From assembly GCA_964586725.1 (NCBI GenBank), contig CAZPJE010000209.1:1-16270 (forward strand): 16,270 nt of DNA. Reading direction: 5' to 3'. The notes under the pieces are model-generated. The model was not told the origin of the DNA. It saw nothing but the letters and a program-made list of their open reading frames with translations, and did not search any database. The translations under genes and the position numbers were made by a program. The stretch comes from an uncultured Steroidobacteraceae bacterium. GTDB lineage: Bacteria; Pseudomonadota; Gammaproteobacteria; Steroidobacterales; Steroidobacteraceae. This document shows, piece by piece, positions 2,253-16,270 of the stretch (its first letter is position 1; each line of letters begins with the position of its first letter).

Positions 2253-3047
2253 ATGATTCCCCTGGAGATCCGCGAAGAACTGCTTAAGCGCATGCGCTCT
2301 GCAGAGTTGGAGCATGATGTCCGTATCGTGCTCGCCGTGGAGTCCGGCAGTCGAGCCTGGGGCTTTGCATCCCCGAACAGCGACTATGACGCGCGCTTCA
2401 TCTACGTGAATCGGCCGGAGTGGTACCTGTCGGTATCGCTCGAGGAACAGCGCGATGTTATCGAGTACCCCATCGTCGATGACGTTGATCTGAACGGTTG
2501 GGATTTGCGCAAGGCCCTTCGCTTGATGTGGAAATCCAACCCGGCGTTCGTCGAGTGGATTCAGTCGCCGATTGTCTACCGTGAAGCGAACCAGTTTGGC
2601 GCCGACGCCCGCGGGTTGCTGCCGCACGTCTACTCCGTCGAGCGCGGCATGCATCATTACCGCAGCATGGCGAAGACCAATTATCGCGGCTATCTGCGGG
2701 AGGCAGAGGTGCCCCTGAAGAAGTACTTCTACGTTTTGCGCCCACTGCTGTCCGTGCGATGGCTCGAGCGGTACGGCACGCCTGCCCCGATCGAGTTCCC
2801 GCGCCTCATGCCACTGGTGGAGGATGATCGGGAGCTGACACAGGCGATCGACGCGTTGTTGCAGCAGAAGCGCGCAGCGCCAGAGCTGGGTCGTGGCCCT
2901 GCCGTGCCGGTGCTGCAGGCGTTCATCGAGCAGGAGCTGGACAGGCTCGAAGCCATCGACCCGCCCGCCGTTCGTCCGGGCGCAGCCGCGCCACTACTCA
3001 ACCGGTTCTTTCTACGGGTCCTTAACGAGACCTGGTCACCGACCTGA
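2253..3047 (+). CDS. Pol-beta-superfamily nucleotidyltransferase of the RlaP type (PF10127-like 'RNA repair pathway' NTase), 264 aa.
   Basis: N-terminal RIVLAVESGSRAWGFASPNSDYDARFIYV carries the hG[GS]...D.D nucleotidyltransferase signature typical of this family. It lies beside rtcR/rtcBA as reported for RlaP genes. The 2088 ORF start would overlap the antitoxin gene, so ATG 2253 is preferred. Confidence 0.7.
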   Translation: MIPLEIREELLKRMRSAELEHDVRIVLAVESGSRAWGFASPNSDYDARFIYVNRPEWYLSVSLEEQRDVIEYPIVDDVDLNGWDLRKALRLMWKSNPAFVEWIQSPIVYREANQFGADARGLLPHVYSVERGMHHYRSMAKTNYRGYLREAEVPLKKYFYVLRPLLSVRWLERYGTPAPIEFPRLMPLVEDDRELTQAIDALLQQKRAAPELGRGPAVPVLQAFIEQELDRLEAIDPPAVRPGAAAPLLNRFFLRVLNETWSPT

Positions 3048-4619
3048 CGCCGTCTCCCAATCCAGCCCGAATCGCGCAAGGTATTTTCGCAGTCGATCGC
3101 TGTCGTTGGTCACGGAGCGCTGCAGTCGGGACGACGCGAACAACGTTCGACCTGCATCCGCCAAAGAACGGGATCGGCGGCAGATGTCGAGCACACCCGC
3201 CAACTGAATCTGGTCGAACAGATCGAGGTCGCGCGCAACGCTCGCCGGCAGTGCGGGAGCGGCCGCGGCGTCGGAATCCGACATCCATGACCCGCGCAGG
3301 CGCTCGATCTCTGCGGCGACAGCCGGCTCGCCGATGCGGCCGCCGTCCGCCAGCGTCGCGAGCCGGGTGATGGAGGCGGACAGCTCGCGGAAGTTGCCGC
3401 GCCACTGGGCCTCGGGCGAGGTCGCAAAGCGCAGATAACGGCTGCGCGCTTCGGTATTGAAGCGGACGGTCGTGGCGTTCGCGGCCGCGAAGCGTTCCAG
3501 TTCGTACTCGATGTTGGGTTCGATGTCTTCCGGCCTGTCCCTGAGGCCTGGCAGCTGGAACGTCCACAGGTTGATGCGCGCCAGCAGGTCCTCGCGAAAG
3601 CGGCCCGCCCGCACGGCGTCGCGCAAGTCGCAGTTCGTGCCAGCAACGAGCTGGAAGTCGCTCTGGGCTTCCTTATCGCCGCCCATAGGCAGGAAGCGCT
3701 TTTCCTCGATGGCCTTGAGGAGCATGGCCTGCTCGTCGAGCCCGAGTTCGCCGATCTCGTCGAGGAACACAATGCCGCCGTCGGCCTTGCGCAGCAGGCC
3801 CGGGCGGTCACTCTGCGCCCCGGTGAACGCGCCCTTCACGTGTCCGAACAGCGTGGACATCGCCGCATCGCCCCGGAGCGTGGCGCAGTTGACCTCGACG
3901 AACTCGCCGCGGATCTGGTGCTGCGCCTTCTTGAGTTCGTAGAGTCGGGTTGCGAGCTGCGACTTTCCGGCACCCGTGGGGCCGACGAGCAGCACCGGAG
4001 CCTTCGAGCGGATCGCCACCCGTTCGAGTTCGTCGATCATGCGATTGAAAGCGGCGTTGCGTGTCGGGATTCCCGACTTCAGGAACGTCGTGCTCTCGCG
4101 CCGCTCGTCCGCGAAGCGTGCGGCGATCTGGTCGTAGCGGGAGAGGTCGAGGTCGATGATCGAGTAGCTCCCGACCTTGCCCGTCGCTTCGCGCGCCGGC
4201 GGTGAGGTTTGCAGCAGCGACCCCGGAAACGTGCGTGCTTCGGCCAGCAGGAACAGGCAGATCTGTGCGACGTGGGTACCGGTCGTGATGTGGGCGAGGT
4301 AGCGCTCGTGCTCGAGGTCGAAAGAGTACTTTCGGACGAACTCCCGCAGGGCGCCGTACATCTGCTCGAAGTCCCACGGGTCGCGCGGATCGACGCGGTG
4401 CAGGCGTACCGTGGTCTCGGGCGACACCTCCTGGATGTCGTCGCGAACCTGCTCCGCCAGCCGCTGATGTGGGCGGGCATGCATGAGCTCGAGGCGACCG
4501 ACGACGAGATCATCCTGTTGGCAGATGGACACAGTCGGGCGCCAGCGCTCCCAGCGGCCCGGGCCCCGGCCGCCAGCGTCGAGCGTCGAGCCCAGGAAGC
4601 CAATCACGACCGTCTTCAT
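3036..4619 (-). CDS. rtcR: RtcR: sigma54-dependent transcriptional activator with N-terminal CARF-type sensor domain, AAA+ core (GPTGAGKS Walker A, GAFTGA sigma54-contact motif) and C-terminal HTH; 527 aa.
   Basis: N-terminus MKTVVIGFLGSTLD is like E. coli RtcR. GPTGAGKSQLA and GHVKGAFTGA are present, and the length is right. It is divergent from rtcBA. The 3' end overlaps the RlaP gene 3' end by 12 nt. Confidence 0.9.
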   Translation of the reverse strand: MKTVVIGFLGSTLDAGGRGPGRWERWRPTVSICQQDDLVVGRLELMHARPHQRLAEQVRDDIQEVSPETTVRLHRVDPRDPWDFEQMYGALREFVRKYSFDLEHERYLAHITTGTHVAQICLFLLAEARTFPGSLLQTSPPAREATGKVGSYSIIDLDLSRYDQIAARFADERRESTTFLKSGIPTRNAAFNRMIDELERVAIRSKAPVLLVGPTGAGKSQLATRLYELKKAQHQIRGEFVEVNCATLRGDAAMSTLFGHVKGAFTGAQSDRPGLLRKADGGIVFLDEIGELGLDEQAMLLKAIEEKRFLPMGGDKEAQSDFQLVAGTNCDLRDAVRAGRFREDLLARINLWTFQLPGLRDRPEDIEPNIEYELERFAAANATTVRFNTEARSRYLRFATSPEAQWRGNFRELSASITRLATLADGGRIGEPAVAAEIERLRGSWMSDSDAAAAPALPASVARDLDLFDQIQLAGVLDICRRSRSLADAGRTLFASSRLQRSVTNDSDRLRKYLARFGLDWETASGR

Positions 4620-4640
4620 AGAGCTAGCATAAAAGATATA

Positions 4641-4679
4641 TTGCTATCGGCCAAGATCGCTTTCAACGGGATGTAGCAA
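4641..4679. promoter_or_regulatory. Candidate RtcR upstream activating sequence: inverted repeat TTGCTA-N27-TAGCAA in the rtcR-rtcB intergenic region, next to an AT-rich tract (possible IHF site).
   Basis: 6-bp inverted arms read from the sequence. It lies about 100-140 bp upstream of the sigma54 promoter, the distance expected for an enhancer-binding-protein UAS. Function is inferred. Confidence 0.3.
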
Positions 4680-4779
4680 GTCTGCGAAAGTCGCCATCCG
4701 TTCCCGCGATCACGCAAATGCTCGTGAATACAGTCAGTTACGCTGGTCGTGCCTGGCGATCGTCGATTCCTCGAACCTT

Positions 4780-4795
4780 TGGCACAGCGGTTGCT
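4780..4795 (+). promoter_or_regulatory. Sigma54 (-24/-12) promoter of rtcBA: TGGCAC-agcgg-TTGCT.
   Basis: Exact match to the TGGCAC-N5-TTGCW consensus, 81 bp upstream of the rtcB ATG and next to the sigma54 activator gene rtcR. Confidence 0.8.
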
Positions 4796-4875
4796 TTGTA
4801 CTCAGCAACAGAGACAACCACCGAAGCACGGGGCGGCGCCATGGGGGCGCCGCCGGTCTCTGCAAGGAAAGTCCC

Positions 4876-6099
4876 ATGAGCGACACGAACTACGAAACGA
4901 TGCATGTCGAAGGCGGCCGCCACGTGAAGATGTGGACGCGCGGCGTGCCGGTTGAAGACGACGCGCGTGCGCAGCTCGCGAACACCGCGCGGATGCCGTT
5001 CATCTTCAAGCACCTTGCAGTGATGCCGGACGTGCATGTCGGCAAGGGCTCGACGATCGGCAGCGTCATCCCGACGATCAAGGCGATCATCCCGGCGGCG
5101 GTTGGCGTGGACATCGGCTGCGGCATGATGGCGGCGAAGACCACGCTGACGGCGGCGGACCTGCCGGACAGCCTCGCGGCGGTGCGTAGCGCGATCGAGC
5201 GCGCCGTGCCGCACGGTCGTACGGTCGGCAAGCGCGACAAGGGTTCCTGGGGCCACGAGCCGCCGCAGAGCGTAGACGCGGCGTGGACCGACCTGGTCGA
5301 GGGCTTCGAGCGAATCAGCACGAAGCACGGCCGGCTGAAGAACACGAACAACCGTGTACACCTCGGCACGCTCGGAACAGGCAACCACTTCATCGAGGTG
5401 TGCCTCGATGAGCACGACGCGGTGTGGTTCATGCTGCACAGTGGTTCGCGCGGCGTCGGCAACGCGATCGGCAGCTACTTCATCGAGCTGGCGCGAGAAG
5501 ACATGCGCAAGTGGATGATCAATCTGCCTGATCGGGACCTGGCGTATTTCCCGGAAGGGACGGACCACTTCGACGACTACGTCGAGGCGGTCGAGTGGGC
5601 GCAGCGCTTCGCGCAGCGCAACCGCGAAGTGATGATGACCAACGTCATCCGCGCGGTGCGCAGCGTGCTGCCGAAGCCGTTCGAGAGCCACGTGGAAGCG
5701 GTGAACTGTCACCACAACTACGTGTCCCGCGAACACCACTTCGGCGAGAACGTACTCGTGACTCGCAAGGGTGCGGTGCGCGCGCGTCGCGGTGAGCTCG
5801 GCATCATTCCGGGCAGCATGGGTGCGCGTTCGTACATCGTGCGCGGCCTCGGCAACGAGGAGAGCTTCCACAGCTGCAGCCACGGGGCTGGCCGGAAGAT
5901 GTCCCGCACCGAAGCGCGCAAGCGCTTCACGGTCGAGGAGCACGCTGCGGCGACGGCCGGTGTCGAGTGTCGCAAGGACGAGGCCGTCATCGACGAGACG
6001 CCGGCCGCGTACAAGGACATCGACGCAGTGATGGCCGCGCAGAAGGACCTTGTGGAAGTTGTCTACACGTTGAAGCAGATCGTCTGTGTGAAAGGATAG
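4876..6099 (+). CDS. rtcB: RtcB RNA 3'-phosphate/2',3'-cyclic-phosphate to 5'-OH ligase, 407 aa.
   Basis: AAGGA RBS 7 nt upstream. Hallmark motifs MPDVHVGKGSTIGSVIPT, HSGSRGVGN, the NCHHNY region and GxxRxG-like SHGAGR are present. Confidence 0.95.
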   Translation: MSDTNYETMHVEGGRHVKMWTRGVPVEDDARAQLANTARMPFIFKHLAVMPDVHVGKGSTIGSVIPTIKAIIPAAVGVDIGCGMMAAKTTLTAADLPDSLAAVRSAIERAVPHGRTVGKRDKGSWGHEPPQSVDAAWTDLVEGFERISTKHGRLKNTNNRVHLGTLGTGNHFIEVCLDEHDAVWFMLHSGSRGVGNAIGSYFIELAREDMRKWMINLPDRDLAYFPEGTDHFDDYVEAVEWAQRFAQRNREVMMTNVIRAVRSVLPKPFESHVEAVNCHHNYVSREHHFGENVLVTRKGAVRARRGELGIIPGSMGARSYIVRGLGNEESFHSCSHGAGRKMSRTEARKRFTVEEHAAATAGVECRKDEAVIDETPAAYKDIDAVMAAQKDLVEVVYTLKQIVCVKG

Positions 6100-6101
6100 T
6101 C

Positions 6102-7115
6102 ATGATCGAGATCGATGGAGCACAAGGCGAGGGCGGCGGGCAGATCCTGCGATCTGCCCTGTCGCTTTCCATGTGCACGCAACAGTCGTTCCGTATTCGC
6201 GCGATCCGGGCGGGTCGCGCGAAGCCGGGACTGCTGCGCCAGCATCTGACCGCGCTGCGCGCGGCGCAGACCGTCTGCGGCGGCACCGTGGAGGGCGACC
6301 AGCTCGGGTCCACCGAGGTGGAGTTCCGGCCGAGTGCGGTCGTCGCGGGCGACTATCGCTTCGATGTCGGCAGTGCCGGCAGCTGCACGCTCGTGCTGCA
6401 GACGGTACTGCCGGCGCTGATGCTGGCCGCGGGGTCGAGCACGGTGCGCATTACCGGTGGCACGCATGCGAAGGCGGCGCCGCCCGTGGACTTCCTGCAG
6501 CTCGCGTTCCTGCCATTGCTGGCCCGCATGGGTCCGCGCGTCTCGATCGACATGACGCAGCCCGGGTTCTACCCGCGCGGTGGTGGCGTGGTCACGGCTC
6601 GCATCGAGCCGACGCCGGCGCTCGTGCCGCTGCAACTGATGGACCGAGGCGCCTGGGTGGGTGGCGAAGCCTGCGCGTACGTTGCTGCCATCCCGATGCA
6701 TGTCGCCGAACGCGAGCTCGAAGTCGTGGGTCGGACGCTCGGGTGGGGCCCGCAGCAGCGCCGCATCAAGCCCTGGGCCAATGAGTTCGGCCCGGGTAAC
6801 GCGCTGACGCTCACGCTGACCCATGAGCACGTTACAGAGGTCTGCGCGGCGTTCGGCGAGAAGACCGTGCGCGCCGAGGACGTGGCAGGCGCAGCGGTGC
6901 GCGAGGCACAGGGCTACCTCGCGACGCGCGCGGCGGTCGGTGCGCATCTGGCTGATCAGTTGCAGTTGCCGGTCGCGTTGGCGGGAGACGGGTGTTTCAC
7001 GGCTGCAGAGATCACGCCGCACTTCGTATCGAACGGCGGCGTGATCGAACAGTTCACCGGTCGGCGCTTCGAGTGCGAGCGAGACGCAGGACGAACGGTC
7101 GTGACGCTGCGATGA
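6102..7115 (+). CDS. rtcA: RtcA RNA 3'-terminal phosphate cyclase, 337 aa.
   Basis: ATG lies 2 nt after the rtcB stop with AAAGGA inside the rtcB end. Starts MIEIDGAQGEGGGQILRSALSLS, the signature cyclase N-terminus. Length matches E. coli RtcA. Confidence 0.9.
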   Translation: MIEIDGAQGEGGGQILRSALSLSMCTQQSFRIRAIRAGRAKPGLLRQHLTALRAAQTVCGGTVEGDQLGSTEVEFRPSAVVAGDYRFDVGSAGSCTLVLQTVLPALMLAAGSSTVRITGGTHAKAAPPVDFLQLAFLPLLARMGPRVSIDMTQPGFYPRGGGVVTARIEPTPALVPLQLMDRGAWVGGEACAYVAAIPMHVAERELEVVGRTLGWGPQQRRIKPWANEFGPGNALTLTLTHEHVTEVCAAFGEKTVRAEDVAGAAVREAQGYLATRAAVGAHLADQLQLPVALAGDGCFTAAEITPHFVSNGGVIEQFTGRRFECERDAGRTVVTLR

Positions 7116-7147
7116 ACGGTTGCATGAGGAATTTGTCTCAAGGTGTA

Positions 7148-7176
7148 TTGACAGGAGATTCGGCGCGCGTAGGATG
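7148..7176 (+). promoter_or_regulatory. Sigma70-like promoter candidate TTGACA-N16-TAGGAT just downstream of rtcA.
   Basis: Perfect -35 hexamer with a 16-nt spacer and a TAnnnT -10. It would drive the small ORF/RNA at 7186-7411. Confidence 0.3.
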
Positions 7177-7185
7177 CGCGCCCCT

Positions 7186-7305
7186 ATGAACTACGCCTTC
7201 AACGCAACAACCCCGCGACTGCACGACATGCAGCGCGCCGCGCTTCGGAATCCGGCGATTCCGTCGAGCGCGCCGCCGCGCGTCGATGAGGTCCTGATGC
7301 GTTAG
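7186..7305 (+). CDS. Small ORF (39 aa, MNYAFNATTPRLHDMQRAALRNPAIPSSAPPRVDEVLMR) or non-coding RNA body, lying between the candidate promoter and the terminator.
   Basis: ATG at 7186 with no clear SD. It is bracketed by a promoter-like element and a strong terminator. Coding status is uncertain. Confidence 0.2.
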   Translation: MNYAFNATTPRLHDMQRAALRNPAIPSSAPPRVDEVLMR

Positions 7306-7371
7306 CTTCCGATGCGAGTCGGAGGCTGACCACACGGCAGCCTCCGGATGCTCTCTACACGAGACCCCGGC

Positions 7372-7411
7372 AGGCCACCGTCTGCCGGGGTCTTTGTGTT
7401 TTGGGCCTGAC
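7372..7411 (+). terminator. Rho-independent terminator: 11-bp GC-rich stem GACCCCGGCAG/CTGCCGGGGTC, then TTTGTGTTTT. It is preceded by a second 9-bp hairpin at 7329-7355.
   Basis: Stem-loop plus U-tract read directly. It ends the rtcBA/small-ORF transcription unit. Confidence 0.7.
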
Positions 7412-7526
7412 GGTCTGACAAACGGCATTTCGTGCTGCGGTGCGGGTTCAACAGCCCGCCTGGCGCGCCTGTGCTCCGGCAACGGATCGCGCAGGGGTGT
7501 ACCGCACGGGTGTGCGTGTCGGAGCC

Positions 7527-7598
7527 AGCAAGCTAGCTCAGTTGGTAGAGCAACGGACAGAACTCCGTGTGTCGCGGGTTCGATTCCCGCGCTTGCAC
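7527..7598 (+). tRNA. tRNA-like gene on a tRNA-Phe-type scaffold (D-arm TAGCTCAGTTGGTAGAGCA, variable loop GTGTC, T-arm GCGGG-TTCGATT-CCCGC). It is non-canonical: 6-nt anticodon loop (CAGAAC, no U33), A1:A72 mismatch, no encoded CCA. Probably a pseudo-tRNA or a tRNA-mimic RNA.
   Basis: Manual cloverleaf: acceptor AGCAAGC/GCTTGCA (6 of 7 pairs), perfect D and T arms, anticodon stem ACGGA/TCCGT with only 6 loop nucleotides. Total 72 nt, against 73 expected without CCA. Confidence 0.5.
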
Positions 7599-7852
7599 CT
7601 CCTTGAGGTGGAGTGATGGTTCATTTGAGCGCGGAGCGAAAGCTTCGCATCGGGATGTCCCGGTGGGTCGATGACGGACACGACGTCGCGACACACAACG
7701 AGGGTACCGCCTTGAGCGGCCCACGGCGTGCGATGGCAGGCGCTGCACTGGCAGAGAGCCGCATCGTCCTCCCGGGTCGACCGCGGTGCCGGCGTGGGCC
7801 CATCCCGACCTATTCGACGAAATGCGCAAGGTGCGCAGGGAAGGAGAGTGTG

Positions 7853-9001
7853 ATGAAGATGATTCGGCGACTGACGGTCGCCCAGCACGAGCGGGTGCTC
7901 GTGTTCCGCGACCGACGCTTCGAGACGATTCTCGAGCCGGGCGTGCACTGGCTGTTCGACCCGCTGCGGCGTGTCGAACTGCAGGTGTACGACCTCACGG
8001 TGGCGGAGTTCGAACACCCGCGCGCTGAGTTCCTGCTGCAGGACGCGCGTGCTGTCATGGAACGCTACTTCATGATCGTCGAGACCGGCGATACCGAAGT
8101 GGGTGTGGTCAGCAAGCTGGGCCGTGTGACGGGCCTGCTGGGTCCGGGCCGTCGTCAGCTGTACTGGAAGGGTCCGATCGACGTGACCGTCGAGAAGATC
8201 GATTTCACGGCGACGATGGAATTGCCGGGTGCGCTGGCCCGTGTCCTGGTGCGCGCGAAGCAGCCGCTTGCGGCGCAGGTGAACGAAGCCGTCAGCGCGA
8301 TCGAAGTCCCGGACACGTCCGTCGGCATGCTGATCGTCGACGGTGAGTTCGTGCGGGTGCTCGAGCCGGGTCTGCACGCGTTCTGGAAGTACCAGCGCGC
8401 GCTGAAGACCGAGCTGGTGGATCGGCGCGTGCAGACGATGGAAGTGGCGGGTCAGGACATCCTGACGCGCGACAAGGTCAGTCTGCGCGTGAACCTGACG
8501 GCGCTCTGGCAGGTGGTCGACGCGGTGCAAGCCCGCGCAGCCGTCGTGAACGTCGTCGAGTCGGTCTACAAGGAATTGCAGTTCGCGCTGCGTGCGGCCG
8601 TCGGCGGCCGCTCGCTCGACGAACTGCTCGGCGACAAGGGCGTGCTCGATCGCGAGATCGGCGCGGCCGTGGCGACGCGGCTCGAAGTCCAGGGCGTGGT
8701 GGTGAAGTCGGTGGGCGTGAAGGACGTCATTCTGCCGGGTGAGATGAAGACGATTCTCAACCAGGTGGTCGAGGCGGAGAAGCGCGCACAGGCGAACCTG
8801 ATCCAGCGCCGCGAGGAGACGGCAGCGACGCGTTCGCTGCTGAACACCGCGCGGCTCATGGATGACAACCCGACGCTGCTGCGGCTCAAGGAGCTGGAGA
8901 CGCTCGAGAAGGTGACCGAGAAGATCGGGCACCTGACTGTCTTCGGCGGCCTCGAGGGTGTGATGAAGGACACGGTGCGCATCCAGCTGCCGGCACGCTG
9001 A
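7853..9001 (+). CDS. SPFH/band-7 (slipin-like) domain protein, 382 aa, with an N-terminal duplicated beta-rich region.
   Basis: AAGGAG RBS 6 nt upstream of ATG 7853. The C-terminal half (QDILTRDKVSLRVNLTALWQVVD...EAEKRAQANLIQRREETAA) is typical of SPFH domain plus coiled coil. The upstream ORF extension to 7613 lacks an RBS. Confidence 0.8.
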   Translation: MKMIRRLTVAQHERVLVFRDRRFETILEPGVHWLFDPLRRVELQVYDLTVAEFEHPRAEFLLQDARAVMERYFMIVETGDTEVGVVSKLGRVTGLLGPGRRQLYWKGPIDVTVEKIDFTATMELPGALARVLVRAKQPLAAQVNEAVSAIEVPDTSVGMLIVDGEFVRVLEPGLHAFWKYQRALKTELVDRRVQTMEVAGQDILTRDKVSLRVNLTALWQVVDAVQARAAVVNVVESVYKELQFALRAAVGGRSLDELLGDKGVLDREIGAAVATRLEVQGVVVKSVGVKDVILPGEMKTILNQVVEAEKRAQANLIQRREETAATRSLLNTARLMDDNPTLLRLKELETLEKVTEKIGHLTVFGGLEGVMKDTVRIQLPAR

Positions 9002-9019: not shown

Positions 9020-9056
9020 CCCGGCGGACCAATGGGGGTCCGCCGGGTGTTTGTGT
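9020..9056 (+). terminator. Rho-independent terminator: CCCGGCGGACC-aatggg-GGTCCGCCGGG, then TGTTTGTGT.
   Basis: Perfect 11-bp stem and T-rich tail immediately after the SPFH gene stop. Confidence 0.75.
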
Positions 9057-9080: not shown

Positions 9081-9394
9081 ATGAAGACCAAGCGTGTACA
9101 CCGCGAAGCCGAGTGCTTTCGAGGTCACCAGTAAGCGTCGCAAAGGCTACCCCTCGGAAACGCGGGTGAAGCGCGGCATCCGGGTCGTGCATGGCGACAA
9201 GGAGCTGATCGAGAAACTCGGTCGTAACGACCCGTGCCCGTGCCAATCCGGTCGCAGATTTCAAGAACTGCTGCATGCAGACCGGAGAATTCGATGGTTC
9301 AGATCGGCACTACTTCTTTCAGAGAGTGAGATCCGTCGCTGACGTCGAAACCAGTTTGCGGCACGAGTGCGGCAGGGTCGACCTCCGGCTCTGA
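9081..9394 (+). pseudogene. SEC-C-motif (SecA C-terminal-type zinc-binding motif) small protein gene, disrupted. A frameshift falls inside the [12 protein letters not shown] / DFKNCC motif, and the gene ends exactly at the IS boundary.
   Basis: ATG 9081 with GGAGAAG RBS gives only 17 codons. Frame +1 (9094..) encodes ...[18 protein letters not shown], while the completion of the motif (DFKNCCMQ) lies in the third frame up to TGA 9392-9394. At least one indel is inferred. Confidence 0.4.
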
Positions 9395-9453
9395 CGTCGC
9401 CCCCGTTTGCGTACGGTTTGCGGTTAGAGCACCGCCAGTTCTGAAGTCCGTTT

Positions 9454-10221
9454 CTACTGACGCTTCTGTGCATACTCGTTCGGTGTCAGGTGCCCGAGCG
9501 AGCTGTGGGGTCGATGATCATTGTAATCGATCCGCCACGCCTCGATCTTCGCGCTGGCATCGTCGATCGATTCGAACTGCATCACGTTCAGGCACTCATC
9601 GCGCAGTCGCCCATTGAACGACTCGATGTGCCCGTGTTCAGTGGGTTTTCCCGGATGGATGAAGTCGAGCTTCACGCCTCGCCGATACGCCCATTCCTCG
9701 AGCACTTTCGACGTGAACTCCGTGCCGTGATCGATAGTGATCGATACCGGTGTGCCAGCTCGCTCGATCGCCCGCTCCAGGGGCGCGACAACGTCGCGTC
9801 CGCCAAACGAAAACCGCGACTCAAGCAACGGAGTCTGACGACTAAACTGATCGACGATGGGGAGCACCCGAAACGCCCGGCCGCTGAACAACTGGTCATG
9901 GACGAAATCCATGCTCCAACGCTCGTGCGTACGCCGCGCCTGCGGAACAGGGCCACGATGCAGGCTCATGTGCTTGCGACGACGCACGCGCATGCGGATT
10001 TGCAGGCCCTCGAAGCGATACCAGCGATACACGCGCTTCCGGTTCACCTTCCAGCCCTCTCGTCGCAGCATGACGTGGATACGCTGATAGCCGAAGCGCG
10101 GCCTCGCGTGCGCGATCTCGCGAATGCGAAGGCGCAGAGCCGATTGGTCTCTGGCCTGGCTCTTGGCGTACCACCCGCCATGGGAGAACTGCCCCAGCTC
10201 TATAGCTTTGCGCACGCTCAC
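9454..10221 (-). CDS. IS3-family transposase OrfB (integrase/DDE catalytic core), 255 aa as a stand-alone ORF. Normally expressed as an OrfAB fusion by -1 frameshifting.
   Basis: Characteristic IS3 OrfB sequence (...DHGTEFTS...YNDHRPHSSLGHLTPNEY). The -1 frame continuation from orfA (..VVRKK|ALRPALRRALAEW..) reads straight into it. Confidence 0.85.
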   Translation of the reverse strand: MSVRKAIELGQFSHGGWYAKSQARDQSALRLRIREIAHARPRFGYQRIHVMLRREGWKVNRKRVYRWYRFEGLQIRMRVRRRKHMSLHRGPVPQARRTHERWSMDFVHDQLFSGRAFRVLPIVDQFSRQTPLLESRFSFGGRDVVAPLERAIERAGTPVSITIDHGTEFTSKVLEEWAYRRGVKLDFIHPGKPTEHGHIESFNGRLRDECLNVMQFESIDDASAKIEAWRIDYNDHRPHSSLGHLTPNEYAQKRQ

Positions 10222-10271
10222 CGCGTAGCGCTCCCGGATCCACTCGGCCAGCGCGCGCCTGAGCGCTGGCC

Positions 10272-10538
10272 TCAGAGCTTTTTTCGGACGACTTCTCCCA
10301 GGATGTGCTTGTCGAGCGTGAGCTCGGCGACCAGACGCTTCAGCCCCGCGTTCTCATCCCGTAGCTGACGCATCTCCCGGATCTCGGTCATGCCAAGCTT
10401 GCCGTACTTCCTCTTCCACAACTAGAAGCTCGCCTCGCTCACGCCCAGCTGCCGACACACGTCGACCACGGGCGTGCCGCCCTCAGCCTGGCGCAGCGCG
10501 TAGGTGATCTGCTCGTCCGTAAACCGTTTGCCCTTCAT
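10272..10538 (-). pseudogene. IS3-family transposase OrfA (HTH) interrupted by an in-frame amber codon (TAG at 10424..10422, where family members have Tyr in EASFYxWKRKYG).
   Basis: Translation MKGKRFTDEQITYALRQAEGGTPVVDVCRQLGVSEASF*LWKRKYGKLGMTEIREMRQLRDENAGLKRLVAELTLDKHILGEVVRKKL. The stop falls in the otherwise conserved SF(Y)LWKRKYG motif. Confidence 0.7.
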
Positions 10539-11270: not shown

Positions 11271-13115
11271 CTACCCTCGGCGCCGCCGCGCCCAGGCTGC
11301 GAGCGAGGGCGCGACCACATGGTCATAGAGTCCAACGCCGATCGCATGCAGGACGGGTGCGCGGAAGACTCGCGCGACACTTCGGTAGGCAGGCATGCGA
11401 TCCCACAGTGCCAGCAGCGCATCGAAGCCACTGAATATCCGCCCCTGCTCGTTTCGCAGGTACAGCCGTGACTCGAGATGTTCCGAGCGCAGCCCCCAGG
11501 TCGCGACGCGTGCCGCTTCCTTTGGGCCATCCACGAACTCGGTAGCGGGCTTGCCGACCGCATCTGATGCGAACCTTTTCGCATAGTGCGATATCTCCAT
11601 GCTGCACACGGGGCAGTCGCCATTGAAGTAGACCTCGCAGCGGGCGTTCGCGTCTGCGACCGGGAGCACGGCCGGTGGTGCCCGCAGCAGATCGCGCAGC
11701 GCACGCTGCGCGGTGGGGTACTGGAACCGGAAGCCTCGCGACAGCAGGCGACTCGGGTAGACGCGCTGCCCGTCCAGCAGCAGTTCCGACATCTCGCCGA
11801 GCATCAGGCGCAGCGGGGTGGCGGGGGAGCGCAGCCATTGCGGCCGCGCCAAGGTGCGAGCGATCAGGTGCTGGAAGTGGCGCTGCCTGAGTGCCTGCGG
11901 CGCCACGGCATTCACGGGGCCTGCGATCGCGATGGTATCGAGCGCAAACACGATGGCGCGCACGAGGTCATCGATGTGTATCCACGACACCCACTGGCGA
12001 CCGTTGCCGAGCACGGCACCGAACCCGAGTCGTGTCGGCAGCGCGAGGCGCGGCAGGATGCCGCCATCGCCGAGCACGAGGCCGACGCGCAGCATGACGG
12101 CCCGCACTCCGAGCGCCGCGAGCGGCATGGCAGTGCGTTCGACCGACTGGCACAGCTGCGACTGGAAGCCAACGCCAGGTCCATGCTGCTCTGAGAGGCG
12201 TTCGTCATCACGCGGCCCGTAGAAGCCGATCGCGCTCGCGCCGACCCAGACGCGTGGCGGCGTGGTCAACCGTCCGCACAGTTCGATGAGTTGCTGCGCA
12301 GTCTCGACGCGACTCGCCACGAGTTTGCGGCGACGCGACCGTGTCCAGGGCGGGCCGAACACGGGCGCGCCGGCGAGGTGCACGATGGCATGCAGGCGCG
12401 CATCGGTGTCGATCTCGGCCAGGTTCGTGATGATCCGCACTTGAGGCCCGAAACGGTTGAGCGCGCGCTCGGCATCGCGTGTCCACACCCAGACGGCATC
12501 GCCACTGCGCAGCAGGCGCCGCACGAGATGCCCACCCACGAACCCCGTAGCCCCCGATACCAGCACCGCGCGCCCCGTCGGGCGCGCCGCGCGTTCAATC
12601 GGCTCGCGCACCCACTCGGGCGGCGCGAAGTGGCGCAGTGCGGCGGTGCCGGTGCGCAGCGACCAAGCGGTCGAGCCGATGCCAAACAGCGTGAACACCC
12701 ATGACACTGCACCGTAATCCGCGGCGACCACCCCATGTGGCAGTGCGAACCAGCCCGTGAGCACGGGCCATAGGGCAAAGAGCACAGCCCCTATGCTGAT
12801 CGCCAGCAGCGTATGCAGCACGCGCTCCGCACGAGGCAGGCGGCGGGTCTGGTCTTCGACGATGAAATCCGCCAGCGTGATGATGATCTCGGCGATGACG
12901 ACCGCCGCAATCAGCAGTGCCCAGGCACCGTGCCACGCGTACCAGGCCAGTGCGAAGAACAGGAAGCCGTACAGCGCTTCGCGCGCAGCGTGCAGCGAAA
13001 GTTCCGCGCGCGCCGATCGCTTCGCCGGGAGCTTCTCGGTGATCTCGTGGTGCCACAGGTTGTCGAAAGCACCCATGACTGCCTGAAGGGTCAGCAAGGC
13101 GAACAAGGTGTTCAT
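11271..13115 (-). CDS. Three-domain fusion protein, 614 aa. N-terminal roughly 170 aa is a 4-TM membrane domain. The centre is a YfcH/SDR39U1-type NAD(P)-binding epimerase-like domain (TIGR01777-like, with DUF1731-type C-terminal segment). The C-terminus is a DCC-family (DUF393) thiol-disulfide oxidoreductase domain.
   Basis: Rossmann motif VLVSGATGFVGGHLVRRLL. YfcH-type tail LGEMSELLLDGQRVYPSRLLSRGFRFQYP. DCC motif EVYFNGDCPVCS with WDRMPAYRSVARV. Start ATG 13115 has a GGAGAG RBS and overlaps the upstream gene stop (ATGA). Confidence 0.8.
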   Translation of the reverse strand: MNTLFALLTLQAVMGAFDNLWHHEITEKLPAKRSARAELSLHAAREALYGFLFFALAWYAWHGAWALLIAAVVIAEIIITLADFIVEDQTRRLPRAERVLHTLLAISIGAVLFALWPVLTGWFALPHGVVAADYGAVSWVFTLFGIGSTAWSLRTGTAALRHFAPPEWVREPIERAARPTGRAVLVSGATGFVGGHLVRRLLRSGDAVWVWTRDAERALNRFGPQVRIITNLAEIDTDARLHAIVHLAGAPVFGPPWTRSRRRKLVASRVETAQQLIELCGRLTTPPRVWVGASAIGFYGPRDDERLSEQHGPGVGFQSQLCQSVERTAMPLAALGVRAVMLRVGLVLGDGGILPRLALPTRLGFGAVLGNGRQWVSWIHIDDLVRAIVFALDTIAIAGPVNAVAPQALRQRHFQHLIARTLARPQWLRSPATPLRLMLGEMSELLLDGQRVYPSRLLSRGFRFQYPTAQRALRDLLRAPPAVLPVADANARCEVYFNGDCPVCSMEISHYAKRFASDAVGKPATEFVDGPKEAARVATWGLRSEHLESRLYLRNEQGRIFSGFDALLALWDRMPAYRSVARVFRAPVLHAIGVGLYDHVVAPSLAAWARRRRG

Positions 13116-13798
13116 AGCCGCTCTCCGTGGGCGCGAAAGCGCCCGGTCTGATAGAACAATTCACCGAACCATCCGTGCGTGACTCGCAACGTGAAGCGGA
13201 ACCAGCCGTCGCATTCATCGATGTGCTCGACATGCGTCGTGCCCGGCGACAGCCAGCGCGGCAGCCGCATATGCCACTCGTGGGCGAAGCCGCTGCGCCG
13301 CAACCACTCGAGCGAAAGATCGAAGTAGTAGCCCGTGCTGACGAAGTGCAGCACGCCGTCGCGCTCGTGCAGTTGCAGCGGCATGCAGAGCCGCGCCGGC
13401 AGGCGTTCGACCAGTCCGCCATGCCGGTCGATGACCTTGGTGGAGCGCACCAGCGACCGTCCGCCGTCGGGCCAGCAGTACTCGCGATGCCAGTCGACGC
13501 CGCCATCATGCGGACCGACGTGGACGACCGCGGGGATGTTCACGCCCACGGCCGCGACGACCGGCGTCCCCAGCAGGCGGGAGACGAGTGCGATCAGTCG
13601 GCCGACGCGGCTTGCCCGCACGACCTCGAAGGTGCCGACATAGTCGACGCGTCGCGCGGGTTCCTCGAAGCGGTGGCGGACCGCGGGCGGCAGCCGCGAC
13701 CAGGCGGTCTCGCCGATGACCCGGCGGACGCCGCTGTGAGCGTGAGCGCTAGCCGGGCAGGGGGTCTCGAGCGGAAGCATCTGGTCGGAGGAGATCAT
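13112..13798 (-). CDS. DUF4166-like domain protein, 228 aa.
   Basis: GGAGAC RBS. Its stop overlaps the start of the fusion gene (ATGA). The sequence pattern recalls DUF4166 proteins, which commonly accompany NAD(P)-binding saccharopine-dehydrogenase/epimerase-like genes. Family assignment is from memory, not from a search. Confidence 0.6.
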   Translation of the reverse strand: MISSDQMLPLETPCPASAHAHSGVRRVIGETAWSRLPPAVRHRFEEPARRVDYVGTFEVVRASRVGRLIALVSRLLGTPVVAAVGVNIPAVVHVGPHDGGVDWHREYCWPDGGRSLVRSTKVIDRHGGLVERLPARLCMPLQLHERDGVLHFVSTGYYFDLSLEWLRRSGFAHEWHMRLPRWLSPGTTHVEHIDECDGWFRFTLRVTHGWFGELFYQTGRFRAHGERL

Positions 13799-13825
13799 GT
13801 GCGTGTCTCCGCGGTGTCCGTGGCA

Positions 13826-14332
13826 TCACTCGCCCACCAGCTTCGAGATGCGCTCGCCCATCTTCATCATCTTCAATAGCGACTTGCGCGGCATGCGCTT
13901 GATCGAGTCGTACCACTGCGTCATGGTTTCCATGAACTCGAGCTGCGCGCGGATGCGCTCGCGGACAACGCGCGGCGTGTCTGTCTCACGCTCGAATTGG
14001 GCGACGCAATCGCGCAGCGCCTGCAAGGTCGGGTCGATCTCGCGCCGTTTGCGACCCTCGATGATCGAGCGGATCACTTCCCACGTGTCGTGCTGGGCGG
14101 CGAAGAAGTCGCGCCGGTCGCCTAGCACCTGCGTGACGTGCACGAGGTCCCAGGCCTGCAGCTCGCGCAGGCCGGTGCTGACATTCGAGCGGGCGATGCC
14201 GAGCGTCTCGGCGATCTCGTCGGCATGCAGCGGTTCTTCGGCCAGGTAGAGCAGCGCATGGATCTGCGCCACGGACCGGTTCATGCCCCAACGACTGCCC
14301 ATTTCGCCCCAGTGGACGATATAGCGCTGCAT
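13826..14332 (-). CDS. MarR-superfamily winged-helix regulator of the GbsR/OpcR-like subtype, about 168 aa (or 174 aa from the upstream ATG 14350).
   Basis: MQRYIVHWGEMGSRWGMNRSVAQIHALLYL...ADEIAETLGIARSNVSTGLRELQAWDLV is the typical HTH region of this subfamily. It is the first gene of the minus-strand operon, 27 bp upstream of the DUF4166 gene. Confidence 0.8.
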   Translation of the reverse strand: MQRYIVHWGEMGSRWGMNRSVAQIHALLYLAEEPLHADEIAETLGIARSNVSTGLRELQAWDLVHVTQVLGDRRDFFAAQHDTWEVIRSIIEGRKRREIDPTLQALRDCVAQFERETDTPRVVRERIRAQLEFMETMTQWYDSIKRMPRKSLLKMMKMGERISKLVGE

Positions 14333-14361
14333 GGTGGGTGTGAGGTGCATGGTGGGCCTCT

Positions 14362-14397
14362 CGGGCTGTATTGACTGTTATTTCTGTCGTTACAGAA
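14362..14397. promoter_or_regulatory. 36-bp operator-like palindrome TGACTgttATTTCTGTcgttACAGAAATtatAGTCA. It overlaps a perfect -10 TATAAT (minus strand, 14393..14388) just upstream of the regulator gene.
   Basis: Inner 8-bp arms are perfect (ATTTCTGT/ACAGAAAT) and outer TGACT/AGTCA arms are symmetric about the same centre. This is the geometry expected for autorepression by a dimeric MarR-type protein. Confidence 0.6.
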
Positions 14398-14413
14398 ATT
14401 ATAGTCATTACGG

Positions 14414-14450
14414 GCGAAAATGGAAGAGGCGGCATGCGCCGCCCTTCCCA
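14414..14450 (-). terminator. Rho-independent terminator of the ELWxxDGT-repeat gene (minus strand): GGAAGGGCGGC-gcau-GCCGCCUCUUCC followed by AUUUUCG.
   Basis: GC-rich hairpin with a T-tract on the minus strand immediately after the gene stop at 14466. Confidence 0.55.
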
Positions 14451-14465
14451 AGGCCTGGCAGGGGT

Positions 14466-16270
14466 TCAGTGCGACCGTCGCCGTGCGGCGCCCACGCCGC
14501 CAGCCATCAGCAACAGGGACAGCCAGTCCCAGGATCCTCCACCGCCGCCACCACCACCTGAGGGCGGCGCGGGGGGCGCCGCCACCGTCACGGTGACCGT
14601 GCCGGGTGCGGACTCTCGCTGCTGGTTGTCGGTCACGGCGTAGGTGAACGTGGCGGTGCCGCTGAACCCGCTCGCCGGGGTGTAGCGGATGGCGCCGGTG
14701 GCACTGTCCACCTGCGTCGTGCCGGAGGCCGGTGCCTGTACCACGCGCACACTGCCTCGAGTCAGCAACCCGTCCTCATCGGTGTCGTTGGCGAGCACAT
14801 CCACGGAAACGGCTGCGCCGGCCTGGGTCGTGGCGGTGTCGGCCTGCGCGGTCGGCGCGAGGTTTTCGACGTTCCAAAGCTCCTGGCCGTTCGCCACGGT
14901 GAAGAGAGGCAGGAACAGTCTGTTCCCGGCAGCTGCCATGCCAAACGGGAACGTAGCCGTATTGAACTGGGCACTCTGCACCGGCAACGCATTCGTCCGC
15001 TCGGTGTTGGCTGCCGTGCCGTCGGTGCGCCAGAGCTCGAAGTTAGTGCTGTTGACGCTTTCAATCGTCACCACAAAGTAAACGAGCCCGCGAAAGTCTA
15101 CAAACTGAGTCGGATTGCTCCGCGGTGTGCCCGGCAGGATGTCGCGCAGCTGGCGGGTGCCGGCCGTAGTGCCGTCCGTGATCCACAACTCCCCATCGGG
15201 CGCACCCTGGAACACGACGCGGTCGCCTATGACGCCAACTGAGGGTGCCGCGAAGGGTGACAGATCGGCCGGTGCGAGCGCGATGGTGCCGCCGGCCGTG
15301 CCGTCGGTGCGCGACAGTGTGCATGTTCCGTTGCCATCGCAGGATTCAAAGTAGAGCAAGTTGCCGACGACGGTCAGGAACCTTCGGTTTCCGCTGGCGG
15401 CGGTACTCTCGTCGACGACGAGGTCGGGAACGGCGGTCGCGGAGCTGAGGCGCCACCAGCCCCGCTGTACGCCGTCGCTTGAGTGGAACAGCAGCGACGT
15501 TCCCAGTCTGGCGATCAAAACGGGGGCGCCGATCGGTCGACCCGCTGCCGAAGTCACTCGCTCCGCGTTGCCGCCTGCGGCGTTGATGCGCCAGAGGAAC
15601 TCGCCGGATTCAGTCTCCGACGCCGCAGCGAAGAAGACCCGATCTGAAAGGCTTTGGAGCACGCAGACGCGCGAGCTCTGGAAGAACAGGCGATTCGAGA
15701 AGAACGGAAACGGTGCGACTTCCTGCGTGCCGGCAGTCGTGCCGTCGGTGCGATAGAGGCGGCCGATTCGATTCACGGTCGCGCCGAAGAACACGCGCCC
15801 GTTCAACTCGAGAAAGCCTCGGCCGCAGTCGCCGGGTGCCGCATTGGCAAAGCCCCCGCTGAAGAAGCTGTCGGGCACGGAAAGGTTGGTCAATCGCGTT
15901 GAGCCGGCGGATGTGCCGTCCGTGATCCAGACCTCGTTGTCGTTGGGCGTTGCGGCGCCGGTGTACACGATGCGATTGCCAAGTCGGGCGCTTTCGGGAG
16001 CGGGAAAGCTGGAGGGCTCGGATGGCGCGCCGTCGGAAAGACGAGTCGTGCCGGCGGCGGTGCCGTCCGTGCGCCACAAGCCGCGCGCGCGCACGCCATC
16101 CGTTGCGGCGAAGAGCATTGCGTCGCCCAGCGCGGTCAGTCGTCCAGGCGATGCATCGCCGTTCGCGGTTTGCGGAGCGAGGTCGACCACCAGGCGTGTG
16201 CCAGCCGTTGTGCCGTCACTGGTCCATAGCTCCCGTCCCAGCTGCGGATCGTCCGGAGCGAACAGCAGGC
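14466..16270 (-). CDS. Large secreted/surface protein, N-terminally truncated by the window edge. It has at least nine ELWxxDGT-type repeats (beta-propeller-like), one cadherin-like/bacterial Ig-like domain (VDVLANDTDEDG...TVTVTV), and a GlyGly-CTERM-like sorting tail (GGGGGGGGSWDWLSLLLMAGGVGAARRRSH).
   Basis: Repeated [EL]W[RI]TDGT[AT]AGT motifs throughout. The C-terminal poly-Gly, hydrophobic helix and Arg cluster resemble rhombosortase-type sorting signals. The ORF continues without a stop to the window end; the GTG at 16190 is internal. Confidence 0.8.
   Translation of the reverse strand, partial: LLFAPDDPQLGRELWTSDGTTAGTRLVVDLAPQTANGDASPGRLTALGDAMLFAATDGVRARGLWRTDGTAAGTTRLSDGAPSEPSSFPAPESARLGNRIVYTGAATPNDNEVWITDGTSAGSTRLTNLSVPDSFFSGGFANAAPGDCGRGFLELNGRVFFGATVNRIGRLYRTDGTTAGTQEVAPFPFFSNRLFFQSSRVCVLQSLSDRVFFAAASETESGEFLWRINAAGGNAERVTSAAGRPIGAPVLIARLGTSLLFHSSDGVQRGWWRLSSATAVPDLVVDESTAASGNRRFLTVVGNLLYFESCDGNGTCTLSRTDGTAGGTIALAPADLSPFAAPSVGVIGDRVVFQGAPDGELWITDGTTAGTRQLRDILPGTPRSNPTQFVDFRGLVYFVVTIESVNSTNFELWRTDGTAANTERTNALPVQSAQFNTATFPFGMAAAGNRLFLPLFTVANGQELWNVENLAPTAQADTATTQAGAAVSVDVLANDTDEDGLLTRGSVRVVQAPASGTTQVDSATGAIRYTPASGFSGTATFTYAVTDNQQRESAPGTVTVTVAAPPAPPSGGGGGGGGSWDWLSLLLMAGGVGAARRRSH

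Follow-up and report, generated by a model that had tools for sequence, protein, structure and literature searches.

A canonical Rtc RNA-repair locus of a Steroidobacteraceae bacterium with an rlaP gene overlapping the 3' end of rtcR

The rtcR-rtcBA locus and its promoter

We analysed a stretch of 16,270 nucleotides (nt) from an uncultured Steroidobacteraceae bacterium (contig CAZPJE010000209.1 of assembly GCA_964586725.1), hereafter the window, which contains a complete canonical RNA-repair locus consisting of rtcR and a divergent, sigma54-promoted rtcBA operon. An intact gene for a nucleotidyltransferase (NTase) of the RlaP family converges on rtcR, and the two coding sequences overlap by 12 bp at their 3' ends. 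RtcA cyclises RNA 3'-phosphates and RtcB joins 3'-phosphate or 2',3'-cyclic-phosphate ends to 5'-OH ends; the rtcR/sigma54-rtcBA operon of E. coli was reportedly described by Genschik et al. in 1998. The same proteins are encoded in the same order on four to five independent metagenome contigs, and the nearest named relatives are Steroidobacteraceae. Other loci compared with the window are designated by L numbers.

The rtcR gene occupies positions 3036-4619 of the minus strand, its stop codon reading TCA at 3036-3038 on the plus strand. All features of an RtcR are present in its product, namely a CARF domain, an AAA+ sigma54-activator domain with the GAFTGA motif and a C-terminal DNA-binding part, and the translation also shows the Walker A motif GPTGAGKS. 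The protein matches the RtcR family model NF038308 with 817 bits (cut-off 650), the CARF-type model PF06956 (2e-83) and the sigma54-domain model PF00158 (1e-48). On the plus strand lie rtcB (4876-6099; PF01139, 3e-133), encoding the 3'-phosphate/5'-OH RNA ligase, and rtcA (6102-7115; NF003246, 430 bits against a cut-off of 352; PF01137 and PF05189), encoding the RNA 3'-phosphate cyclase. Only 2 nt separate the rtcB stop from the rtcA ATG, a distance also found in three relatives, and RtcB is 95% identical to its counterparts in L028 and L025.

The sigma54 -24/-12 promoter of rtcBA, TGGCACAGCGGTTGCT at 4780-4795 (plus strand), has the form TGGCAC-N5-TTGCT and is the sole match to the promoter motif in the window when up to one mismatch is allowed; at this stringency, the window scan detected no second sigma54 motif upstream of rlaP or of the tRNA-like element described below. 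The motif by itself is not statistically rare, with 0.30 matches expected per window and at least one match in 47 of 200 shuffles, and it retains an unchanged position in six orthologous intergenic regions of rtcR operons. A further candidate, TGGCGC...GTGCT at ~7461, was rejected for its wrong spacing. The rtcB 5' leader is predicted to form a GC-rich hairpin on the plus strand (4809-4862, core stem 4832-4854; z = -2.8 for the minimum free energy (MFE) fold). This hairpin, GGGCGGCGCC-ATGG-GGGCGCCGCC, is retained in five of the six regions (the window, L028, L025, L027 and L031), down to 70% RtcR identity; it is placed 5' of rtcB, but 5' of rsr in L027, and it might be a processing or regulatory element.

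Re-reading of the open reading frames (ORFs), stops and starts reproduced exactly the gene, promoter and overlap coordinates of the original prediction, and its assignment of a canonical RtcR, sigma54 promoter and rtcBA is borne out by the family models, the conservation of the promoter and the 2-nt gap. As in the Rtc systems of E. coli and Salmonella, a divergent rtcR encodes CARF, AAA+ and HTH parts, the promoter conforms to TGGCAC-N5-TTGC, and rtcB precedes rtcA. Unlike the Salmonella rsr-yrlBA-rtcBA operon (Hughes et al. 2020, PMC7790460), the window has neither rsr nor Y-RNA genes; rsr is present in L027, the relative with 70% RtcR identity. The window differs from both systems in its GC-rich leader hairpin, in an rlaP gene abutting the 3' end of rtcR, and in a tRNA-like leader and slipin gene after rtcA. 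In Salmonella, RtcR is activated through the CARF domain by tRNA fragments with cyclic-phosphate ends (PMC7790460), and RtcA/RtcB binding has been reported for RtcR activation in E. coli (PMC9650030). By homology, the RtcR of the window would sense RNA-damage signals through its CARF domain and activate sigma54 transcription of rtcBA from a promoter that would drive the translationally coupled rtcB and rtcA divergently from rtcR; RtcA would then cyclise RNA 3'-phosphates and RtcB would seal 2',3'-cyclic-phosphate or 3'-phosphate ends to 5'-OH ends.

The rlaP gene and its junction with rtcR

The intact rlaP gene, which encodes a Pol-beta-type RNA nucleotidyltransferase, extends on the plus strand over positions 2253-3047, starting with an ATG and ending with the TGA at 3045-3047. 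Its product matches PF10127 (6.4e-85; 285 bits against a cut-off of 23) over model positions 1-247 of 249, and the ATG at 2253, not an upstream TTG at 2088, agrees with the N-termini of homologues. Of the Pol-beta NTase catalytic motifs, G-S (G32-S33) and D-x-D (D44-Y45-D46) occur in at least 90% of the aligned homologues, and the downstream aspartates D79 and D84 do not vary at all (ten sequences including the window's own). A PDB sequence search with this protein gave no match at E <= 1e-3. The RlaP enzymes of P. fluorescens and P. aeruginosa add one or two nucleoside monophosphates to RNA 3'-OH ends and prefer a cleaved-tRNA mimic (PMC12776372); the usual Pseudomonas layout is rtcB-rlaP-rtcA, and the family has been linked to RNA ligases (Carruthers, Fatma & Huang 2025 preprint, PMC12776372), a link for which Burroughs & Aravind 2016 is cited there. 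Like these proteins, the window RlaP belongs to the same NTase family, has intact catalytic motifs and is encoded close to RtcB, RtcA and RtcR; it is 41-44% identical to sampled in-operon RlaPs. Unlike the Pseudomonas genes, the window rlaP is located neither between rtcB and rtcA nor behind the sigma54 promoter, and stands 1.8 kb from rtcB as a seemingly separate transcription unit convergent with rtcR, so that it would share no operon with the RNA ligase gene. Such operon association is not a sequence criterion of the RlaP family, many PF10127 members being stand-alone.

Upstream of rlaP, four tightly spaced ORFs run in the same direction on the plus strand, with an antitoxin gene first and rlaP last in the string. 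The first encodes an Unstab_antitox-family antitoxin (983-1216; PF09720, 3.6e-11; 77 aa in identical contigs) that is 99% identical in L028, and its stop is overlapped by 4 nt by a ParE-type toxin gene (1213-1506; PF05016, 1.4e-5, 26 bits against a cut-off of 23), 94% identical in L028. A 141-aa ORF (1548-1973) follows with weak similarity to SUKH/SMI1-KNR4 immunity proteins, its PF14435 and PF09346 matches (E ~6e-4) being below the gathering score. The last, a 74-aa orphan antitoxin-like ORF (2021-2245; PF09720, 6.2e-5, 23.4 bits against a cut-off of 23.3), matches only the C-terminal half of the model, shares 69% identity with the first antitoxin (983-1216) over 39 aa and ends 7 nt 5' of the rlaP ATG. 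In L021, the block corresponding to 983-2245 is preceded by MobC/NikA-like, DUF4240, DUF4304 and LRR genes, a context that suggests a mobile island. PADLOC returned no match for the window RlaP, slipin, SUKH-like ORF, orphan antitoxin, ParE or antitoxin, and RlaP as part of a catalogued defence system is therefore unsupported here. Since rlaP lies outside the sigma54 operon, as the last gene of a co-directional conflict-gene string, we infer that it would be transcribed independently of RtcR.

The overlap between rlaP and rtcR (3036-3047) comprises the last three codons and the stop of both genes (TGA/TCA). No intrinsic terminator-like site was found at or near this junction on either strand, and clear terminator-like sites are present elsewhere in the window, at 7361-7394 and 9020-9047. 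Structure prediction for the junction returned nothing unusual (z = +1.3 and +0.9). With no terminator nearby, antisense read-through from either gene into the opposite one appears possible. Among close relatives, RtcR has a constant length and variable last three residues (SGR, SSG, SSR, SRG), and the tail residues of RlaP likewise vary among its homologues; two frames can share the 12 bp because both proteins end in three poorly conserved residues, and dual coding at this site is predicted to cost little. The original prediction had called the convergent overlap unusual, a view that does not hold in the gene tables of related high-GC genomes, where overlaps of 4-71 nt occur in six of the 14 remaining convergent pairs, among them RtcB/Lactamase_B in L110 (11 nt) and cyclase/rtcA in L027 (4 nt). 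Like the convergent overlaps of compact high-GC bacterial genomes, that of the window is short, confined to the stop region with TGA/TCA and devoid of an intergenic terminator; we found no distinctive feature in it, its length being within the range of the other pairs in related genomes.

Close relatives share the Rtc genes and differ in the fate of RlaP. L028, whose RtcR is 91% identical, has a GNAT gene after rtcR and its RlaP (92% identical) 5.5 kb beyond rtcA. Read in the orientation of the window, this locus starts with antitoxin, ParE, HTH, desaturase and FAD oxidoreductase genes, followed by GNAT and rtcR in the reverse direction, and continues with rtcB, rtcA, the leader with its tRNA-like element, slipin, M74 peptidase, TonB_C, PDC-M21A, PDC-M21B, RlaP and hydrolase genes. 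L001, also with a 92% identical RlaP, has a layout of the L028 type. DNA homology between the window and the RlaP block of L001 and L028 is restricted almost exactly to the rlaP ORF. In both loci, a 57-nt remnant of the 3' end of the SUKH-like gene (~20 codons) persists in frame and with the same stop, 5' of the PDC-M21/RlaP block, and rlaP overlaps the end of the PDC-M21A/B candidate defence pair (L028 1148-2364, minus strand; L001 4208-5424, plus strand). The PDC-M21A and B proteins of L028 were matched by PADLOC at 1e-47 and 5e-61, the B protein being faintly AbiEii-like as an NTase. An ORF judged from its translation to be alpha/beta-hydrolase-like follows rlaP in L028 and L001, its GTG start overlapping the rlaP stop.

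In L025 and L026 (RtcR 87% identical), an in-frame C-terminal remnant of RlaP, comprising the last 14-28 codons, lies against rtcR. The L025 remnant reads ...MLHPFFREVLRETWLAP, where the window RlaP ends ...LLNRFFLRVLNETWSPT, and keeps the identical 12-bp overlap geometry (6788-6799); the strength of this putative remnant is its exact position, frame and stop. Directly beyond it lies a conjugative-transfer block with SLT, TraG_N, TraH and TraF genes (L025 7002-13799; L026 3619-9612), and the 3' flank of rtcR therefore seems variable or insertion-prone in this clade. At 70% RtcR identity, L027 has an rsr-rtcB-rtcA order and an unrelated convergent neighbour 60 nt from rtcR. Across the sister lineages that differ in RlaP, rtcR with its C-terminus, the promoter region and rtcBA are unchanged, and the intact junction is found within the clade in the window's own population alone.

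The RlaP remnant of L025, together with the SUKH-gene remnant of L028 and L001, which points to a window-like block as the source of their arrangement, makes it rather probable that the window-type block is the older state, from which RlaP would have been lost once (L025) and relocated once (L028/L001). In view of the same two remnants, we dropped the notion of the junction as a very recent accident. An origin of the junction through microhomology (GACGCC, present in L028 both in the 3' flank of RlaP and at the 3' end of rtcR) was also discarded, six bases being too few.

Wider surveys addressed how RlaP and Rtc genes are combined elsewhere. Among 80 more distant rtcR loci (RtcR identity 61-73%), 72 had the at least 800 nt of rtcR 3' flank that make them informative for convergence, and 45 covered the operon. 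The synteny comparison envisaged in the original prediction, as to whether RlaP is always convergent with rtcR, has a negative outcome, since none of the 72 loci has RlaP convergent at the rtcR 3' end. Of the 45 covered operons, 14 have RlaP inside, with rtcB on one side and rtcA on the other, and in one locus of the census, L031, it follows rtcR directly and in the same direction (PF10127, 4e-20). From the RlaP side, 16 other loci were recovered. Twelve of them (64-69% identity), from Massilia, Pseudoduganella, Pseudomonas sp., Roseateles and a Burkholderiaceae metagenome-assembled genome, have variable neighbours and no Rtc gene within ~6 kb, and L009 is the only one of the 16 with rtcB-rlaP; three further RlaP matches (30-45% identical) are likewise without Rtc neighbours. 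RlaP thus occurs at Rtc loci in at least four layouts, i.e., in the operon, co-directional after rtcR, convergent with rtcR, and several kb 3' behind a candidate defence pair.

The tRNA-like leader, the slipin gene and the remaining genes

The region 3' of rtcA (7140-7852) is homologous to the gene-free 0.7-1 kb that lies 5' of slipin genes in L028, L025, L109, L110 and L111 (leader spans 5052-6000, 5173-6000 and 4993-6000 in L109, L110 and L111, respectively). The homologues have in common a leader of ~650 nt with an invariant TTGACA, hairpins, a T-arm-like domain and a cloverleaf element. In the window, all on the plus strand, a sigma70-type promoter (TTGACA-16-TAGGAT, 7148-7175), with an invariant -35 and a conserved -10 box in six homologous slipin loci, is followed by a hairpin (7318-7348), a terminator-like hairpin with a T-run (7361-7394), a T-arm-like domain (~7441-7458), a tRNA-like element (7527-7599) and the slipin (SPFH/Band 7) gene itself (7853-9001; PF01145, 7e-31; homologues named 'slipin family protein'), 3' of which lies a bidirectional terminator (9020-9047, both strands). 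The terminator-like hairpin has a 15-bp stem with compensatory changes at three pairs across the six loci; it probably ends rtcBA transcripts and may also be an attenuator inside the slipin leader. Over the whole leader, 18 of 77 predicted pairs are compensatory in the alignment of six sequences. We do not regard as a gene the 39-aa ORF that is annotated in some contigs at ~7187-7305, for it carries large indels across the six loci and is mostly missing in L028.

The tRNA-like element matches the Rfam tRNA model with 49 bits (gathering score 29), and its MFE fold is a cloverleaf with compensatory pairs in the acceptor, anticodon and T stems. ARAGORN reported it as 'tRNA-???' with a 2-base anticodon and a 6-nt loop, CAGAAC; positions 1 and 72 are A and A and are unpaired in the fold. 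Counterparts lie at L001 336-408, L025 2211-2284 (minus strand) and L028 6164-6236 (minus strand), with the loop sequence CAGAAC or CUGAAC in the clade. The homologues in L109-L111 read as tRNA-Ile (GAU or UAU) with 7-nt loops, one base more than in the window, L001, L025 and L028, and the clade is accordingly predicted to have lost one loop nucleotide from an RNA that is conserved in other respects. Judged by its 6-nt loop, 2-base anticodon and unpaired positions 1 and 72, the element would be a tRNA-like RNA, not a decoding tRNA. In an Rfam search of the whole window at E <= 1, the generic tRNA model was the only match of note, three others scoring far below their gathering scores, and the search placed no Y RNA or other known Rfam family in the leader or at the rlaP/rtcR junction. 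YrlA-type Y RNAs, which have a tRNA-like domain, are encoded in rsr-rtcBA operons (Chen et al. 2014, PMC4201824). Like YrlA, the window element is a predicted non-coding RNA with a tRNA-like module encoded beside RtcB; unlike YrlA, it has no Ro60/Rsr gene with it, forms a full cloverleaf with an anticodon arm, lies in a slipin leader and matches only the generic Rfam tRNA model.

The leader/slipin unit accompanies RtcB in at least three architectures: it comes after rtcBA in the window and ahead of rtcB in L110, and in L084, L096, L099 and L100 it lies between rtcR and the rtcB/rtcA genes; L084 and L099 also have a sigma54 motif 5' of the tRNA-like element. In the slipin loci of L109 and L111, the unit is present and no rtc gene lies within 6 kb. 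L084, L099 and L100 also have arrays of three to five tRNA genes between the slipin gene and rtcB. In about 15 distant rtc operons of another lineage (L036-L038, L041, L044, L045, L048, L053, L055-L057, L067, L085, L097 and L105), a tRNA-Pro(UGG)-like gene is the first element 5' of rsr or rtcB, as at L037 4665-4742 (minus strand). These genes have C1-G72 and an odd long D-loop, 13 of 15 encode the CCA end, and a sigma54 motif, TGGCAC-N5-CTGCA/T, occurs ~110 nt 5' of nine of the 15. We found no published link of slipin or of these tRNA-like genes with RtcB, the content of Burroughs & Aravind 2016 being unchecked in this respect.

Beyond the slipin gene, the block of M74 peptidase, TonB_C and RlaP genes that follows slipin in relatives is missing. 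Homology and synteny with L028 and L001 stop at 9327, ~130 nt before the orfB gene of an IS3-family transposase (9454-10221, minus strand; NF033516, 211 bits). The IS3-family element spans 9328-10370, its orfA part corresponding to two short calls in identical contigs. Farther on, the regions 11271-14350 and 14466-16190, both on the minus strand, encode a TIGR01777-type epimerase fused to a DCC1-like thiol-disulfide domain, a MarR regulator and an ELWxxDGT-repeat surface protein; the ORF after the epimerase had a DUF4166-like label that NCBIfam, giving no match, left unconfirmed. None of the genes at 11271-16190 appears related to the Rtc finding.

Interpretation of the rlaP/rtcR junction

Collectively, these data make it likely that the window holds a canonical Rtc locus with rlaP outside the sigma54 operon and independent of RtcR, and that the 12-bp overlap is a tolerated recombination junction, not a control device. 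The junction would be a by-product of local gene shuffling, probably ancestral to the small clade and subsequently lost at least twice with no change to rtcR or rtcBA; elsewhere, RlaP is associated with Rtc loci in other positions. Expressed with the conflict-island genes upstream and not from the sigma54 promoter, rlaP would make a constitutive or separately controlled contribution to repair. Several observations weigh against this reading. Mutual antisense read-through is physically plausible, given that the junction has no terminator-like site, and the case for RtcR independence of rlaP consists of gene order and the absence of a second sigma54 motif. The remnant in L025 comprises few codons, and 25 of 2000 shuffles equal its unconstrained local alignment; the three sister lineages are nearly equidistant, so that the order of events is not firmly polarised. 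Moreover, selection instead of common ancestry could account for the junction geometry that the window shares with the L025 remnant, and the presence of RlaP or its remnant within ~6 kb of rtc genes in all three sisters is compatible with selection for linkage.

The overlap might alternatively tie the two genes together functionally, convergent transcription with complementary 3' ends leading to interference or RNase III-type processing that would couple the NTase to the level of the Rtc regulator. Such coupling would gain from the lack of a terminator-like site near the junction in an organism with clear intrinsic terminators elsewhere, from the geometry retained at the L025 remnant and from the stability of the arrangement across several metagenome samples. 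However, the arrangement is absent from all 72 informative distant loci and even from the 91%-identical relative L028; the loss of RlaP in L025, and its relocation in L028 in the case that the window type is ancestral, brought no compensating change in rtcR, the promoter region or rtcBA; these genomes often have convergent overlaps of comparable size, and no special structure is predicted at the junction. We hence regard a regulatory role of the overlap as improbable. Of the interpretation given in the original prediction, the canonical locus and an intact RlaP of a family published with RNA ligases stand, and the designed coupling finds no support in a lineage-restricted junction that is lost or absent in two of three sister lineages.

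It is also unlikely that RlaP is unrelated to Rtc, belonging simply to the adjacent mobile conflict island and perhaps acting with the antitoxin-like ORF as a toxin-like RNA-modifying module. This would agree with the twelve RlaP loci of 64-69% identity that have variable neighbours and no Rtc gene nearby, with the position of rlaP 7 nt after the orphan antitoxin-like ORF and downstream of a ParE module, with the MobC/NikA-like genes upstream in L021, with the overlap of rlaP with the PDC-M21A/B pair in L028, and with the near confinement of homology between the window and L001/L028 to the rlaP ORF. Yet in three sister lineages, and in two different positions, RlaP or what is left of it lies no farther than ~6 kb from rtcBA, and the association recurs as rtcB-rlaP in L009, of the same subfamily, as co-directional rtcR-rlaP in L031, and in 14 of 45 rtc operons. 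The published biochemistry also fits a repair role (PMC12776372), the 74-aa ORF matches but half an antitoxin model, and PADLOC was null for the window proteins.

A broader, tentative and on balance doubtful possibility is that the Rtc locus is larger than its canonical core, with RlaP, the tRNA-like RNA and slipin as parts of one RNA-damage response and the junction as an ancestral linkage free of RtcR control. The four layouts of RlaP at Rtc loci suggest that linkage matters more than co-regulation, or that RlaP simply travels with conflict islands.

The link between RlaP and Rtc is already published, and its convergent placement here represents a lineage-specific layout. As a common type of junction restricted to one lineage, the overlap would need transcript data before being put forward as a regulatory device. 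On the other side of the locus, tRNA and tRNA-like genes emerge as recurrent built-in parts of rtc operons, and the association of a tRNA-like leader and slipin unit with RtcB, if confirmed and previously undescribed, would provide a tangible starting point for identifying the substrates or signals of bacterial RtcB systems.

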